A program made the position numbers and the translations under genes. DNA of 64,000 nt, from NCBI GenBank assembly GCA_046350795.1, contig JAXLZT010000001.1, forward strand, positions 245,780-309,779, read 5' to 3'. The DNA is from Minisyncoccota bacterium (GTDB lineage Bacteria > Patescibacteriota > Minisyncoccia > Phycocordibacterales > CALRHW01). Below are positions 31,042 to 47,376 of the stretch, one piece after another (the stretch's first letter is position 1; every line of letters starts with the position of its first letter). Under the pieces are notes generated by a model. It ran no database searches. It saw only the letters and a program-made list of their open reading frames with translations, and was not told where the DNA came from.

Positions 31042-31804
31042 TTTAAAAAATCGCAGGATTAAAAGAGGATCGTGTACAGAAGTTTTTTGACAAAAATCAC
31101 ATGAAAAGCCCGAGGGCGATTTATGTGATCATTCCTGTCGCACACCCTTTTTCTGAGGTCTTAGTGGTGTGAAGACAGGTGCAGAAACTGTTATATATGA
31201 TTGTTAATTATATGTAACAGAGTAAAAAGAAACTGTCGCGAAAGCGACAGAGTAAGTTAAATATTGTGGTTTTTAAATTTCCTAATAGGAAATTTAAGAG
31301 CATATGGTGGATGCCTTGACTCTAAGAGGCGAAGAAGGACGTGGTCTGGCTGCGATAAGCTTCGGGGAGGTGCCTAGCAACCTTTGATCCGAAGATTTCC
31401 GAATGGGGAAACCCTATAGCGTAAGCTATAATCATGCACTTGATGTGTGATGCAAACTCTGGGAAGTAAAACATTTCAGTACCAGAAGGAAAAGAAACTA
31501 ACAAGCATTTCCTTAGTAGCGGCGAGCGAAAAGGAAGAAGCCCAAACCGAGCTTCATTCTCACGATGCATTTATGTGTTGTGGGAATGACGCTCGGGGTT
31601 ATAAGACGACAACTCAATTTATATTGAGAGAGTTACAAAACATTTTGTTAATGGAATACGCTGGAAAGCGTGACCCTAGGGGGTAATAGTCCCGTACATG
31701 AAAATAAAATGTCTCTTACGTTGTTGTTCTTGAGTACCTCAAGACACGTGTGGCTTGAGGGAATTTACCGGAACTAACCGGAAAGGCTAAATACTCTTAG
31801 AGAT

Positions 31805-31841
<37 letters not shown>

Positions 31842-33260
31842 CAACCCGATTAGGGTGGTGAAATAGACCTGAAACCATATGCTTACAAGGAGTCAGAGCG
31901 GACGTCGCAAGACTGTTCCGTCATGGCGTGCCTATTGAAGAATGAGCCAACGAGTTTATGTATGCTGCAGGCTAAGTGCGAGAGCATGGAGCCATAGGGA
32001 AACCGAGTGTGAATAGCGCGTTTGTAGTATATATAAGACCCGAAGCCAAGTGAGCTTGCCATGAGCAGGGTGAACTTATGAGAAATCGTAAGGGAGGCCC
32101 GAACCGATAAGCCGTGCAATACTTCCGGATGACTTGTGGTAAGAAGTGAAAAGCTAATCGAACTTGGTAATAGCTGGTTCTCTCCGAAATAGCTTTTGGG
32201 CTAGCGTCGAGTGTACCCTAGAGGGGTAGAGCACTGGATGGTTTAAACAGGGCGAAAGCTCGTTAAACCAATCAAACTCCGAATACTCTAGATTAATTAC
32301 TCGGCAGTTAGACTCTGGGGGCTAAGCTCCAGTGGTCAAAAGGGAAACAGCCCGGATCTCAAGTTAAGGTCCCTAAATCAACGCTAAGTGCACTTAAGGT
32401 GGTAGAATTTCTCAGACACTGAGGAGGTTGGCTTAGAAGCAGCCATCCTTTAAAGAAAGCGTAACAGCTCACTCAGTAAGAGATTTTGCGCCGCAGATAA
32501 TCGGGGCTAAGCGTAGTACCGAAACTGAGGATGTGTCGTCGATTCGTCGATGATACGTGGTAGGAGAGTATTCTTGTCTGCTGTGAAGGCAAAGGGGTGA
32601 CCCATGCTGGAGCGTCAAGAAGTAAGAATGTTGGCACAAGTAACCGCAATGCGGGTGAGAGTCCCGCACACCGAAAGACTAAGGTTTCCTTGGCAATGTC
32701 AATCATCCAAGGGTTAGTCGGGCCTAAGGCAATGGAGAAATCCGCAGCCGATGGACACATGGTTAATATTCCATGACTTCTGTATACAGCGATGGAAGGA
32801 CGGAGTTCAGTATGTTTCGCATGTTATTGGATTTGTGTTCGTGTTGTAAGAAAGCTTCACAGGTAAATCCGTGAACTGATTTAAATATCGATTTCAAGCA
32901 AAGCGAAAATGTCGGGTAACCGGCAAATGAAACAAAGCGAGCTTCCAAGAAAATTTTCTAAGCTTATGTATATAGGATCCGTACCGCAAACCGACACAGG
33001 TAGTCAGCTCGAGTAGAGTAAGGTGAACGAGTGAGAGGTCCCCAAGGAACTCGGCAAAAAAGCAGCCGTAACTTCGGAATAAGGCTTGCCCTTCGCAAGA
33101 AGGGCCGCAGCTAAAGTATCTCTGGCAACTGTTTATCAAAAACACAGCTCCCTGCGAACTCGTAAGAGGATGTATAGGGGGTGACACTTGACCAATGCCA
33201 GAAGGTCAAACAACGACTGTCTGCTTTCGCAAGATTGCAGGCCGATTGTTGTAAGCCCTG

Positions 33261-33295
<35 letters not shown>

Positions 33296-33512
33296 TCTGA
33301 GATTATCGCAAGATGATTTCAGAATGACTGGGACTGTTATGTGGCAAAGTGGCTGTTTAGATAAACGAAAAAGTTAAATCATTACATAAAAATGCTACCT
33401 ACTTTGTAGTAATACAAAGTCAGTCAAAATGTGGTTGGCAAGAGACCAACGCCACACATCCTACTCCGAAGAGAGGATGAAGATAGAGTCCGTCTGTGTA
33501 AAGGAATAGACG
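33296..33512 (+). other. putative ORF-less group I intron in 23S (E. coli ~1917 region)
   Basis: It inserts between the conserved CGGTCCTAAGGT and AGCGAAATTCCTTGTC. The 5' exon ends in U and the insertion ends in G. Confidence 0.55.
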
Positions 33513-34175
33513 AGCGAAATTCCTTGTCAGGTAAGTTCTGACGCGCACGAATAGTGTAATGACTGGAGAACTGTCTCGGGGACTTGCTCGGTGAAAATAC
33601 AGTACCGGTGAAGATGCCGGTTACCTGCAGTTAGACGAAAAGACCCCAGGAGCTTTACTGCAACTTGATATTGCATGTATGTTTTTTATGCGTAGCGTAG
33701 ATGGGAGGATTTGAAGTTTATCTTTCGGGGTAGATGGATCCGACAGTGAAATACCATTCTTAAAAAATATACCTGCTAACCCACACGGAAAAAACGAGCG
33801 GGGACAGTATCTGGCGGGCAGTTTTAGTGGGGCGCTATCCTCCTAAAGAGTAACGGAGGAGTTTATTAAGGTCAGCTAGGCGCGAATGGAAACCGTGCCG
33901 ATAGTGTAATGGCATAAGCTGGCTTAACTGTAAGACGTACTTGTCGAGCAGATACGAAAGTAGAACATAGTGAACCGACCATGCGCATTAGAGGCGGTGG
34001 GAGATTATCGGATAAAAGCTACCCTGGGGATAACAGGCTGGTTGTGCCTAAGAGTCCATATCGACGGCACAGTTCGGCACCTCGATGTCGGCTCTACTTA
34101 TCCTGGAGGTGGAGAAGCTTCCAAGGGTATGGCTGTTCGCCATTTAAAAAGTAACGCGAGCTGGGTTCAGACCGT

Positions 34176-34456
34176 TCAGAGGCAGATGAGTAATCGCCCT
34201 TGAGCAATCTGAATCCTCAGAGGAATTGTTTGAAATGTTTTTGTTTTTGAAAAAGAAAGTGAAACCAACCAATCACGGCGGTCGCACAATGCGTAAAGCA
34301 ATGCGCGATTAAAGCTGATGAATATCGATGAAACCCCAATGGGCAACGTCGAGGGAAGTCGAAAGACACCCGTAGAGACTACATATCGGCCGTGACGCGG
34401 ACAACACGTGTACACGAAGGCATAGTCCAATGCACACAGTAATGTGTGGGAACATG
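34176..34456 (+). other. putative ORF-less group I intron in 23S (E. coli ~2593 region)
   Basis: It inserts between GGGTTCAGACCGT and CGTGAGACAGGTTGGTC. The 5' exon ends in U and the insertion ends in G. Confidence 0.55.
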
Positions 34457-34832
34457 CGTGAGACAGGTTGGTCTCCTATCTACTGCAGGCGTTGATTCTT
34501 GAGGAGATTTGACTCTAGTACGAGAGGACCGAGTTGAACTGACCTCTGGTCTATCTGCTGTCACGCCAGTGGCACCGCAGAGTAGCTATGTCGGGAATGG
34601 ATAACTTCTGAAAGCATCTAAGAAGGAAGCCAACTCCAAGATTAGGAATCGTTTGAGACTCGTGAGAGATGATCACGTTGATAGGCTTTAGGTATAAGCA
34701 CAGTAATGTGTTGAGCCGAGAAGTACTAATAAGTCGATTCTATTAGGAAATTTGAAAACCATCTTTTTACTCTGTTACATGGGATGAACAATCCTGTGAT
34801 TTATGCAGTTATTTGAAAACTAAATACTGAAG

Positions 34833-34905
34833 ATAAAATTGCTCTTATAGCTCAGCGGCAGAGTGTCGGCGTGCCACGCCGAAGGTCGTTGGTTCAAATC
34901 CAACT
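34833..34905 (+). tRNA. tRNA-Gly (GCC)
   Basis: It folds by hand into a cloverleaf (acceptor GCTCTTA/TGAGAGC, anticodon loop GTGCCAC). It lies between 23S and 5S. Confidence 0.75.
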
Positions 34906-35142
34906 GAGAGCTTCCCGCCAAGGGAACGGGCGGGTGTTGGTTGCGTTGGCCCAACCTTAGGGAGTCCTGGAGCTTGGTGTCGGAGCCAAGAAGTTGTCTG
35001 CTACCACGACGGAAGCAGGTACTCCAGGCTCTCTGAGGGCCAAGCAAGACGTTGTTCTTTGTTTATTTTCAGTCACAAGAGCTTTGCTCTCGTGTTCAGT
35101 ATTTAGTTTTCAAATGACGCTTGGTTTTTTGAATCTTTAGTT

Positions 35143-35250
35143 TTGGTGGCTCGACGTGGTGGTCACACCCCTTCCCATTCCGAACAGGGCAGTTAAGCAC
35201 CATAGTGCCGATGATACTCCGATGAGGGGGAAAGTAGGTAGCCGCCAGAA
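35143..35250 (+). rRNA. rrf: 5S rRNA
   Basis: It has CCCATTCCGAACAGGGCAGTTAAGC...GTGCCGATGATACTCC and a terminal helix TGGTGGC/GCCGCCA. Confidence 0.85.
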
Positions 35251-43080: not shown

Positions 43081-43108
43081 TTGACTCAAAAACAGATATC
43101 TATATAAT
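43081..43108 (+). promoter_or_regulatory. sigma70-type promoter for 16S rRNA (TTGACT-N16-TATAAT), with an 8-bp palindrome TCCCTATA/TATAGGGA just downstream
   Basis: It is a near-consensus -35/-10 pair about 300 nt upstream of 16S. Confidence 0.55.
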
Positions 43109-43400
43109 GGTGAAATCCCTATAAAAGATATAGGGATGTACTTTGAAATTACTTATACGTATTCACATACGTGCAAGTCAAAAGTTTATTCAAAAATAAG
43201 GAAATTACATTTCCTTGTTTCGACGGCGCTCGGACGATGTGGAAGCAAGCTTCCACTCGCTCCTCGCTTGTCGAAATAATTTCGGATTAAAAAGTTCTGG
43301 GCAGAAAGGACTCTTAAAAACAGGGCGCATTTTAGAAAGATACTATTTTCTATTTTGTTCCGTTCAACAAAAATTTGTCTTCAAAAATAAATTTTTACTA

Positions 43401-44889
<1,489 letters not shown>

Positions 44890-45191
44890 AAATGAAAATC
44901 GTTCTGTTGTTTTTACAACAAAACTTACAGTCGATTTCTGAGCCTCAATTGAGCTCAGAAACGGATTATTGCTAAATATCCTAAAAGTAGCATGACAATC
45001 GGAAAGACGGTTTGAACGGAACAAAATAAAGAATAGTATCTAGAAAAATCGCATACGAAAGTGTGCGGTTTTTCTTTTGTTTGGGTCTTGGGTAGTATCA
45101 TTGACAAATAGTATTTTTAATGATAAGATATAGTGTAGAGCCTGATGATTGAAAACGTGCGTTTTCTCTTACTCAGGAAGTTCTTGGAGAT

Positions 45192-45677
45192 TTGGTTATG
45201 GACAAGCATGACAAGCTGATGATGAAGTTGATTTTCTGGTGCTTCATCGCGCTACTCTGTGCGACCTTCATGGTGACTCCTGTTTTTGCTTCAGGGCAAA
45301 TGTCGGGGGCCACCGGTGATCGTCTCATCACCGCAATCATTGAAGTGGAGTCTGGCAACAATGACTCTCCTGAGCCCGGAGACAAGAACAAGAAGGACTG
45401 GGCCTATGGATGCATGCAGATTCGCCAAGACTGCGTCACGGATGTGAACCAGCGTTTTGGGACGAACTACACATCCAAGGACTGTCATGGCAACCGTGAG
45501 TTGTCAGTGTGGATCTTCCGGAAGTACATGGAGATCTACGCCACAGAAGCTCGTCTCGGCAGAAAGCCGACTGACGAAGATCGCGCTCGCATTTGGAATG
45601 GCGGGCCGAACGGCTACAAGAGGTCTGACACCAAGTCCTACTGGGCAAAGGTGCAGAAGGCTTTGAAGAAGCTGTAG
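45192..45677 (+). CDS. secreted lytic transglycosylase-like (SLT domain) protein in a GC-rich insert
   Basis: It has a signal peptide, the motif IEVESGNN...YGCMQI (an SLT catalytic E-S...G(L)MQI pattern) and ~55% GC. It lies between 16S and tRNA-Ile. Confidence 0.5.
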   Translation: MVMDKHDKLMMKLIFWCFIALLCATFMVTPVFASGQMSGATGDRLITAIIEVESGNNDSPEPGDKNKKDWAYGCMQIRQDCVTDVNQRFGTNYTSKDCHGNRELSVWIFRKYMEIYATEARLGRKPTDEDRARIWNGGPNGYKRSDTKSYWAKVQKALKKL

Positions 45678-45845
45678 AAACAATTCCAGTCGAAATGGGC
45701 GTCGGAGACGCTCGAGGAGAAAAACATGCACAGCATGTAAAAGGACCACCCGCTCGGAGAGTAGGTGGTCTTGTTGTTTACATAGGAGTAAATCTTGTGT
45801 TATCGTCCGTTTTTTGTTAGATTTTATGGGCATATAGTTTTATTT

Positions 45846-45919
45846 GCGCGCATAGCTCAGCTGGTAGAGCATTCGACTGATACTCGAAAGGTCCTAGGTT
45901 CGACTCCTAGTGCGCGCAC
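45846..45919 (+). tRNA. tRNA-Ile (GAU)
   Basis: Hand-folded cloverleaf (acceptor GCGCGCA/TGCGCGC, anticodon loop CTGATAC). It is the typical 16S-23S spacer tRNA. Confidence 0.8.
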
Positions 45920-45954
45920 CCGTTTTGCGCCTTTGTTGGCGCCGTTTTATTTAC

Positions 45955-47376
45955 ATGAATATTCAGAAAAAAACAAAAATTGTTGCAACAATAGGTCCAG
46001 CTACAGAAAGTGAAAAGATGATAGAAAAACTTTTTCTTACTGGTCTTGATGTTGTGCGCTTAAATTTTTCTCATGGTGATCACGAAGAGCATCAAAAACG
46101 TGTAGATATTGTAAAAAAAATATCAAAGAAGATTGGTAAAAACGTAGCTATTTTACAGGATCTTGCTGGTCCAAAGATTCGTATTGGAGATTTTGCTACC
46201 GAAAGAATTCAGCTAAAAGAGGGTCAATTTTTTACTTTAACAACAGAAAAAATAACAGGTGATGAAAAACGTGTTTATATAAATTATCCAAATTTATCAG
46301 AAGATGTGAAAATAGGCGGTTTTGTTTTACTTGATGATGGAAAAAAGAAACTCCAGATAGTGGATATAAAAGACAAAGAAGTAAAATGTCTTGTGGTTGT
46401 CGGTGGTGAGATAAAGGGTAGGCGTGGAGTAAATCTACCTGGTGCATATTTGAAAATTAGTTCAATTACAGAAAAAGACAAAAGAGATTTTGCTTTTGCT
46501 GTAAAAAATAAAGTTGATTTTTTAGCTCTTTCTTTTGTACGCAAACCAGAAGATGTAATTGAGTTGAGAAAAATGATAGAAAGAGCAAAAATCGATACTG
46601 GAATTATATCAAAAATAGAGACACCTGAAGCTGTAGAGAACATTGATAAAATTATAGAGATATCTGATGGAATAATGGTAGCTCGCGGTGACTTGTCTAT
46701 CGAAGTACCCGCTGAAAAGGTGCCGATGATTCAGAAAATGATTATAAAAAAGTGTAATGATGCTGGTAAGCCAGTAATTACAGCAACTCAAATGTTAGAA
46801 TCAATGATAAATATTCCTGTACCCACTCGAGCAGAAGTATCTGATATTGCTAATGCTATTTTTGATGGTACGGATGCGGTAATGCTTTCAGAAGAAACAA
46901 CTCTTGGTAAATTTCCTCTAGAGGCGGTAGGGGTGATGTCTCGTGTAGCTTTAGAGGTAGAGCGTGGTTATCGTGAAAGATCTAGTGTTGAGACTGCAAA
47001 TAATAGTGGAATGGAGATAGTAAATTCTATTACCAAATCTGTGGTAAATATAGCTAATGACGTAGGTGCTAAGCTTATTTTTGCACTTACCGAAACGGGT
47101 TTTTCTGCACGTATGGTGTCACGACATAAACCCAATTCACTTATTATGGCACTATCACCAAACGAAAGAGCTTGTAAAAAGCTTAGTCTGAGTTTTGGTT
47201 GTTACCCGGTATGTATAAAAAGATTTCTAACTCTACCTGATGCCTTTAATTTTGTACGTACTTTTTGTTTAAAAAATAAATTATCAAAAAAAGGAGATAA
47301 GGTTGTTGTGGTGGCTGGTGCCCCATTCAACAAAAAAGGTGTTAAGACAAATATGATTATAGTTGAAGTAATTTAG
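45955..47376 (+). CDS. pyk: pyruvate kinase
   Basis: It has the PK motifs KIVATIGPA and MVARGDLS. The start is taken at MNIQKK. The longer ORF starting at 45910 overlaps tRNA-Ile. Confidence 0.85.
   Translation: MNIQKKTKIVATIGPATESEKMIEKLFLTGLDVVRLNFSHGDHEEHQKRVDIVKKISKKIGKNVAILQDLAGPKIRIGDFATERIQLKEGQFFTLTTEKITGDEKRVYINYPNLSEDVKIGGFVLLDDGKKKLQIVDIKDKEVKCLVVVGGEIKGRRGVNLPGAYLKISSITEKDKRDFAFAVKNKVDFLALSFVRKPEDVIELRKMIERAKIDTGIISKIETPEAVENIDKIIEISDGIMVARGDLSIEVPAEKVPMIQKMIIKKCNDAGKPVITATQMLESMINIPVPTRAEVSDIANAIFDGTDAVMLSEETTLGKFPLEAVGVMSRVALEVERGYRERSSVETANNSGMEIVNSITKSVVNIANDVGAKLIFALTETGFSARMVSRHKPNSLIMALSPNERACKKLSLSFGCYPVCIKRFLTLPDAFNFVRTFCLKNKLSKKGDKVVVVAGAPFNKKGVKTNMIIVEVI

Follow-up and report, generated by a model that had tools for sequence, protein, structure and literature searches.

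We analysed a 64,000-nt stretch of DNA (the window) from a metagenome-assembled genome of a Minisyncoccota bacterium (contig JAXLZT010000001.1, positions 245,780 to 309,779), in which an open reading frame (ORF) for a small lysozyme-like protein lies between the genes for 16S ribosomal RNA (rRNA) and isoleucine transfer RNA, tRNA-Ile(GAU). The 16S rRNA gene (43394..44893, plus strand, as are all window features below unless noted; Rfam RF00177, 1368.8 bits) has a putative promoter upstream of its leader, found in a consensus scan (TTGACT-16-TATAAT, 11 of 12 consensus positions, 43081..43108), and is enclosed by the arms of a 30-nt, 93% complementary processing stem (43338..43367 pairing with 45012..45041), the 3' arm of which is 100% identical in a relative, L005. 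This stem closes before the ORF, as a first-pass annotation of the window had claimed, and is longer than that annotation had drawn it. The ORF begins 305 nt past the 16S gene on the same strand and is followed by tRNA-Ile(GAU) (45845..45921; ARAGORN and Rfam), a terminator-like hairpin (45927..45942) and the pyruvate kinase gene (45955..47376), which is the next gene downstream in L005 and in a further related locus, L175, as well.

The first-pass annotation had placed this gene in an rRNA operon, wrongly so: 23S rRNA (31280-34750; Rfam), tRNA-Gly (34841-34912; Rfam and ARAGORN) and 5S rRNA (35142-35250; Rfam) lie upstream, with ~8 kb of protein genes between them and 16S, so that 16S and 23S/5S are not linked here. 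In a classical operon spacer (16S-tRNA-Ile-tRNA-Ala-23S) the 23S gene comes after the spacer tRNA; here nothing ribosomal is found 3' of tRNA-Ile, pyruvate kinase standing there instead, and none of the related loci examined has 23S after tRNA-Ile. Unlinked rRNA genes are reported to be widespread, Patescibacteria included (Brewer et al., bioRxiv 10.1101/705046), and the window shares with them a 16S gene that is set apart from 23S/5S and adjoined by protein genes.

Read from a TTG codon, the ORF between 16S and tRNA-Ile spans 45192-45677, as first annotated; an ATG at 45198 is the likelier start and yields a protein of 159 aa (45198..45677). Its GC content, put at ~55% by the same annotation, is 0.53, compared with 0.35-0.37 in the flanks and in 34 genes of the window. 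A word-indexed search returned 202 homologues at E<=1e-3 and an exhaustive search returned 3608 representatives of 50%-identity clusters at E<=1e-10, while the ratio of nonsynonymous to synonymous substitution rates (dN/dS) against three relatives is 0.12-0.33, indicating purifying selection. The ORF is therefore far beyond chance. An identical protein, annotated as hypothetical, is recorded from a metagenome-assembled genome of a "Candidatus Paceibacterota bacterium".

A GC-rich segment of this kind could in principle be a chimera of metagenome assembly, given that the sequence comes from a metagenome-assembled genome, that rRNA regions tend to mis-assembly, and that GC content steps from 0.35 to 0.53. 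This can be excluded with only a negligible residue of doubt, as four assemblies, made independently from separate sequencing runs, agree at 99.6-100% identity from 16S through ORF and tRNA into the downstream genes, and so over both junctions, and more diverged relatives share the layout.

Fold and catalytic residues of the encoded protein

The product had initially been described as a secreted hydrolase of the SLT type on the basis of the strings IEVESGNN and YGCMQI, both of which are found in the translated ORF. Profile searches detected a lysozyme-like domain, as that description anticipated, with scores below the Pfam gathering cut-offs for both Destabilase (PF05497; 22.6 bits against 26.2, E=1.3e-4) and SLT (PF01464; 16.6 bits against 21.3, E=5.8e-3). 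Many of the homologues carry a precomputed PF05497 match. Scans against PHROGs and NCBIfam were uninformative, giving one 12-residue PHROG match and a weak match to EmtA.

Searching PDB sequences, we obtained the best match with the destabilase of the medicinal leech (8bbu, E=6.3e-12), as well as matches to clam i-type lysozymes (2dqa, 1.2e-4; 3ab6, 2.8e-4; 4pj2, 3.5e-4), while transglycosylases of the MltE type were reached only at E ~0.5. An AlphaFold model built on 51 homologues has a pLDDT (predicted local distance difference test) of 89.9, and its top six PDB matches in Foldseek are all i-type lysozymes with target-normalised template modelling (TM) scores of 0.73-0.85. Against destabilase the model gives target-normalised TM scores of 0.80-0.85 at 34-36% identity over ~118 residues; SLT/MltE structures rank beneath all i-type lysozymes, at E>=5e-3.

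Two acidic residues, Glu51 (codon 45348-45350) and Asp62 (codon 45381-45383), align with a Glu and an Asp of the clam 3ab6 chain and are invariant among 51 family members. In i-type lysozymes, such a Glu/Asp pair serves as the muramidase dyad (PMC10126035). The window protein thus shares with i-type lysozymes and destabilase (8bbu, 8bbw, 2dqa, 3ab6) the fold, a similarly spaced Glu/Asp pair, and the GxxQI and NGGPxG motifs, of which GxxQI and the longer form RIWNGGPNGY are conserved across the family alignment. In animal i-type lysozymes the cysteines are cross-linked as disulphides. The window protein differs from these enzymes in being bacterial, with a predicted bacterial signal peptide and a score below the Pfam cut-off, and in having three Cys after the signal peptide, in the mature domain; at the positions of the many clam Cys, other residues are aligned. 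We conclude that the protein has an i-type lysozyme/destabilase fold, and that its branch of the family is poor in cysteine and widely distributed among bacteria and phages. An earlier study mentioned a branch of PF05497 made up of bacterial and viral metagenomic sequences and left it out of its tree (PMC10126035). In the literature searched we found no characterised member of this bacterial and phage family, and nothing specific on a destabilase or i-type lysozyme in Patescibacteria.

SLT lytic transglycosylases (PF01464; E. coli MltE/EmtA, Slt70) are related through the lysozyme-like superfamily and are, as is predicted for the window protein, exported enzymes acting on peptidoglycan; their catalytic Glu, too, is part of an E-S motif where the first helix ends. 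They are set apart from the window protein by weaker sequence and fold matches (E=5.8e-3; Foldseek E>=5e-3) and by its invariant Asp partner. A single-Glu mechanism is that of a transglycosylase, while an acidic Asp partner goes with hydrolysis. Because Asp62 is invariant beside Glu51, hydrolysis is indicated rather than the single-Glu transglycosylase mechanism, and the catalytic Glu is not one without an acidic partner. Together with the below-cut-off Pfam score and the weaker structural matches, this speaks against an SLT identity. Muramidase activity is predicted from the fold and the Glu/Asp pair.

Residues 1-31 (45198..45290), ending in VFA and followed by SG, resemble a Sec signal peptide when read from the sequence, and would thus direct export and be cleaved off. 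The AlphaFold model places a helix at residues 3-25, followed by a low-confidence linker, and hydrophobic N-terminal segments are present throughout the family alignment. The mature domain comprises residues 32-159 (128 residues). The initial description of a secreted, SLT-like hydrolase thus held for the signal-like segment and the lysozyme-superfamily domain, and failed in the choice of family, i-type lysozyme/destabilase being the closest.

Recurrence, variability and recombination in the 16S-to-tRNA-Ile gap

Close relatives of the gene (64-80% protein identity) lie on contigs of 1-2 kb that start with the last ~40 bases of 16S and end in tRNA-Ile, so that their layout is the same as in the window. 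In a species-level scan (one genome per species), which returned 80 loci holding a homologue, the order 16S, lysozyme, tRNA-Ile(GAU) on one strand recurred in 24 of the 80, representing at least 24 species, all labelled Patescibacteria. The 16S identity of such linked loci to the window ranges from 75 to 100%; one linked locus is mislabelled as an archaeon, its 16S being 89% identical to that of the window. None of the 24 has a 23S gene close by. Additional to these is the 1-Mb contig L175, with 16S, lysozyme, tRNA-Ile, pyruvate kinase and tRNA-Leu in order. Some 20 other homologues from Patescibacteria, and all homologues from other phyla, do not adjoin 16S; the neighbours of one unlinked paralogue, P0015, give no clue to its function, being a periplasmic binding protein, a helix-turn-helix protein and proteins without an assigned function. 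A neighbour-joining tree, which was built on 142 columns and is weak, places 22 of the 27 linked genes in one clade without unlinked members. The gene is therefore not the one-off insertion that it had appeared to be when the window was read by itself, although its carriers are a minority of the lineage.

We then sampled the gap blind to the protein, by choosing metagenome contigs with the 29-nt 3' end of the window 16S (at least 120 contigs). Among the matches listed, tRNA-Ile(GAU) lies downstream in 89 of 120 contigs (68 on the same strand and 21 inverted), the 16S-to-tRNA-Ile spacer measures 175-4823 nt, and, as a rough frequency, a lysozyme homologue is present in only six of the 120 (~100 evaluable). 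The other spacers among these matches are either short and empty or hold unrelated genes. Such cargo includes a HicA toxin (PF07927, above threshold) with a partner on the minus strand, a trypsin-like peptidase (PF13365), and two recurrent proteins found at five or more loci each, one of 100 aa and membrane-like, the other of 444 aa and without an assigned function (contigs with other cargo: L197, L228 and L246, spacer 1871 nt; L221; L284; L289). With so few lysozymes, and with spacers that are empty or filled otherwise, the gap is a variable site for accessory genes, the lysozyme being one that recurs there, in a minority of the lineage. The literature searched held nothing specific on protein genes in the 16S-tRNA-Ile spacer of the Candidate Phyla Radiation (CPR). 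The lysozyme superfamily and unlinked rRNA neighbourhoods are already known kinds; the recurrent 16S-lysozyme-tRNA-Ile synteny and the variable cargo are without description in that literature, the work on unlinked rRNA genes (bioRxiv 10.1101/705046) covering the unlinking itself and not a recurrent secreted lysozyme or changing cargo in this gap.

Some linked loci hold more than the lysozyme. In L016 (633-1205), L017 (1737-2288) and L031 (749-1285) a second small unit with its own promoter and terminator lies between 16S and the lysozyme, and encodes a protein of ~180 aa with a Cys-rich C-terminus (CxQC...NRG...CPxxC) and, by eye, a FlgM-like stretch; it has no Pfam match. In L033 (525-3140) the same interval encodes a repeat-rich secreted protein of 871 aa, fibronectin-III-like by eye, and a protein of 169 aa.

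Comparison of the window with two relatives, L005 and L008, shows that its lysozyme gene is a recombinant. Spacer, promoter, leader and first codons (44894-45214) are ~97-100% identical to L005. At the same time, the pyruvate kinase of the window is only 79% identical to that of L005; the flanks are therefore unusually conserved and the coding sequence is not uniquely diverged. The segment covering the mature domain (45340..45700) is 88-96% identical to L008, the promoter and leader of which are only 40-54% identical to those of the window. At informative sites, 61 agree with L005 and none with L008 in 44894-45214, as opposed to 11 and 107, respectively, in 45340-45700 (Fisher p=6e-37 for the contrast between segments), so that an L008-like mature domain sits between L005-like flanks, with breakpoints at ~45215-45340 and ~45700-45710. 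Replacement of an allele alone, with conserved flanks around a diverged coding sequence, was considered and dropped, the three-way mosaic with L008 showing recombination.

The foreign-looking composition noted in the first-pass annotation was borne out at third codon positions, where the GC content (GC3) of the ORF is 0.70 compared with 0.29 +/- 0.04 (range 0.20-0.37) in 34 genes of the window. Three close relatives have GC3 values of 0.60-0.70 despite saturated synonymous sites (dS 1.2-2.4). In linked genes GC3 is on average 0.12 higher than in the genes beside them, the difference being positive at 19 of 20 loci, as compared with an excess of 0.04 in unlinked paralogues (Mann-Whitney p=0.004), and GC3 of the gene stays near 0.5-0.6 irrespective of the host value. 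This steadiness fits a gene that circulates among hosts of differing composition.

Putative transcription signals around the gene

Immediately after the 16S processing stem lies a terminator-like hairpin with a T run (T1, 45042..45085; hairpin 45042-45075, 15 bp, RNAfold dG -10.7), which would end the 16S unit and has compensatory changes in its stem in the relative L009. It is followed by a near-consensus, promoter-like site with an extended -10 element (TTGACA-17-TAAGAT with a TG extension, 45101..45129) and by a 5' leader of 68 nt (45130..45197) containing a hairpin (CCTGA...TCAGG, ~45143-45178) and the letters GGAG (45186-45189). Downstream of the ORF, a second terminator-like hairpin followed by TTGTTGTTT (T2, 45739..45783, dG -19.2) is conserved in relatives, with a compensatory A>G / T>C change in L008. 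A candidate tRNA-Ile promoter with a weak -35 element was recognised by eye (TTGTGT-17-TAGATT preceded by TG, 45795..45824); this block is conserved in four of four relatives, and the promoter scan itself called a weaker site nearby (45777-45806).

These signals recur at the 24 linked loci examined. In most of them a hairpin and T run separate the end of 16S from the ORF, in most a terminator-like hairpin also follows the ORF, and 14 of the 24 have a near-consensus promoter 13-80 nt before the ORF (TTGACA or TTGACT, 16-17 nt, TAnnAT with TG), while the spacer sequences between the signals differ from locus to locus. With T1, a promoter and leader of its own, and T2, the lysozyme gene looks like its own transcription unit, and the arrangement argues for 16S, lysozyme and tRNA-Ile as three separate units. 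The first-pass suggestion that the gene hitch-hikes on rRNA transcription is accordingly disfavoured by the conserved hairpin after the 16S stem and the conserved near-consensus promoter before the ORF.

Spelled out as a rival explanation, this suggestion holds that the gene is co-transcribed with 16S because T1 is leaky or overridden by rRNA antitermination, so that lysozyme output would track ribosome synthesis and growth rate, and tRNA-Ile would need the same read-through. The gene lies 305 nt after 16S, all three genes are on one strand, their order is kept in at least 24 species, and the 97% identity of spacer and leader between the window and L005, next to 79% for pyruvate kinase, could reflect a constraint from precursor processing. 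A single transcript, however, would need neither a hairpin and T run right after the processing stem, as seen in most linked loci, nor the TG-extended promoter seen in 14 of 24. Further to that, tRNA-Ile has the opposite orientation to 16S in 21 of the 89 contigs among the matches listed and therefore cannot generally rely on read-through from 16S. We consider co-transcription unlikely on balance.

Translation of the gene probably does not depend on the GGAG, which lies 8 nt before the ATG and had been taken for a Shine-Dalgarno (SD) motif. The letters are present as annotated, but the 16S 3' tail of the host (44860-44893) reads GGAGTATTTCAAAT, compared with the canonical GGATCACCTCCTTA, and lacks the CCUCC anti-SD partner. 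SD-like motifs precede 5 of 47 window genes, about the random rate (12.5% of random 17-mers). Because the host 16S is without CCUCC and the host genes are without SD motifs, we reject GGAG as a working SD sequence.

The leader has further features of its own. A motif CC(T/A)(G/A)ATGA is found ~10-20 nt after the -10 box in the window (45141-45150) and in the leaders of L008, L009, L015 and L019, with a CCAATGA variant in L016, L017 and L031; in the window, the ATG within it begins an upstream frame of 24 codons, which overlaps the main start. An Rfam search of 44880-45960 at a permissive threshold gave chance-level matches only and assigned the 5' leader to no riboswitch or other leader family. 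Elsewhere in the window, a TATAAT-like box stands only ~7-12 nt ahead of the start codon of many genes (for example upstream of 8184, 18270 and 39313 on the minus strand, 47392, 50645 and 52289), which suggests that leaderless mRNAs or mRNAs with very short leaders are the norm in this genome, the 68-nt leader of the lysozyme gene being an exception.

Interpretation of the locus and minor features of the window

We suggest that the gene probably encodes an exported, i-type-lysozyme-like hydrolase, is its own transcription unit, and is exchangeable cargo in a variable 16S-to-tRNA-Ile gap. The 16S transcript would close its processing stem and then meet T1; the lysozyme gene would be transcribed from its own extended -10 promoter through the 68-nt leader to its own terminator, and tRNA-Ile would apparently form a further separate unit. 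In this Paceibacteria-like (CPR/Patescibacteria) lineage the gap would hold differing accessory genes, with the lysozyme as a recurrent one that is exchanged between lineages by homologous recombination, and such exchange would account for both the mosaic sequence and the GC-rich codons in an AT-rich genome. The exported enzyme would most likely cut the glycan strands of peptidoglycan with Glu51 and Asp62, its presumed target being a cell wall, whether that of the host cell these ultra-small bacteria live on or the producer's own.

Several points weigh against this reading. Both Pfam scores fall short of their thresholds, the disulphide-rich scaffold of the animal enzymes is absent, and enzyme activity and export are predictions. 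Promoter and terminator functions are assigned from consensus matches and conservation, and antitermination of the rRNA type could carry polymerase past T1. The GC3 excess may have arisen otherwise, through selection on the mRNA for instance; the near-monophyly of the linked genes fits vertical descent with losses equally well as lateral spread; and the sample of at least 120 contigs is dominated by a few groundwater projects, which makes the frequency of six in 120 a rough one.

It may be, alternatively, that the gene is the remnant of a recent phage or plasmid insertion, such as a stranded endolysin integrated beside a tRNA. The family does have many phage members: 234 homologue matches fall on viral contigs of IMG/VR, and L092, the closest viral example examined, encodes beside tail and baseplate genes a 462-aa protein that matches endolysins and ends in this domain. 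The composition of the gene looks foreign, and in L005 and L007 part of the 5' end of tRNA-Ile, GCGCGCATAGCTGTTTTGGTAGA, is present a second time ~50 nt upstream of the complete tRNA (~1010-1035; alignment A1, columns 1050-1130), possibly as a scar left by recombination or by integration at the tRNA. Phage lysins share a homologous catalytic domain with the window protein, at 40-56% identity. However, L092 and many of the top family representatives are multi-domain proteins of 300-490 aa with the lysozyme domain at the C-terminus, while the window gene is single-domain, with a predicted signal peptide, a host-type putative promoter, a cellular context and no holin partner. No integrase, transposase or phage genes flank the ORF, its neighbours being 16S, tRNA-Ile, pyruvate kinase, a pilin-like gene and Mur ligases, and around it we found no convincing target-site duplication or terminal inverted repeats, only short repeats at chance level. 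Among the 120 contigs of matches listed there was no empty-site relative with near-identical flanks, only remote matches in the region of the processing stem. The same arrangement is moreover present in at least 24 species with 16S identities down to 75%. Of the phage or plasmid origin proposed in the first-pass annotation, the phage members of the family are borne out; recent insertion of such an element is, in our view, very improbable.

The gene could also be an ancestral housekeeping autolysin of a Patescibacteria clade, inherited vertically at this site with many losses and serving to remodel or split the cell's own wall, in which case the odd composition and the mosaic would stem from no more than occasional recombination among close relatives. 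Agreeing with this, the linked genes mostly form one coherent clade, protein identity drops roughly in step with 16S identity, purifying selection is strong, and two Mur ligases of peptidoglycan synthesis are encoded a few kb downstream. Against it, presence in only six of ~100 evaluable contigs among the matches listed is a poor fit to a housekeeping role, other spacers hold unrelated cargo, many family members are phage lysins, and a GC3 of 0.70 against a genome average of 0.29 persists despite saturated synonymous sites (dS 1.2-2.4). We hold a housekeeping autolysin to be doubtful, and the odd composition and mosaic to be just as doubtfully explained by exchange among close relatives alone.

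Going beyond the reading of exchangeable cargo, we tentatively raise the possibility that the gap is a recombination-driven exchange site in which the conserved RNA genes and spacer act as homology arms, and that the lysozyme, kept GC-rich through this traffic, is a weapon against the host wall or a feeding tool drawn into an arms race. If true, the homology arms would let cargo move between species otherwise too diverged to recombine. To our knowledge, hosts and attack mechanisms have been established for almost no Paceibacteria, and a conserved, predicted-exported muramidase with a strong promoter-like site is a candidate for breaching, or feeding on, the wall of a partner. The large family (~3600 cluster representatives at E<=1e-10) bears on the origin of the "invertebrate-type" lysozymes of animals, and its bacterial and phage members could yield new lysins. 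The variable cargo also calls for caution when the 16S-tRNA-Ile spacer is used as a marker, or when DNA adjoining rRNA genes is assumed to be inert.

The rRNA genes themselves show some further peculiarities. The gene order 23S-tRNA-Gly-5S is itself unusual, and the 23S match (31280-34750) measures 3470 nt compared with 2925 nt for the model; it therefore holds insertions of ~545 nt, with no long ORF inside. Within the window 16S, a 24-nt inverted repeat (44487-44536) forms a long hairpin, possibly a lineage-specific helix extension. Insertions of ~0.7-1.4 kb are present in the 16S genes of L014, L018, L020, L030, L049, L053, L056 and L175, at the equivalents of positions ~739, 1371/1372 and 1456 of the window 16S, and are probably rRNA introns of the kind known from CPR bacteria.

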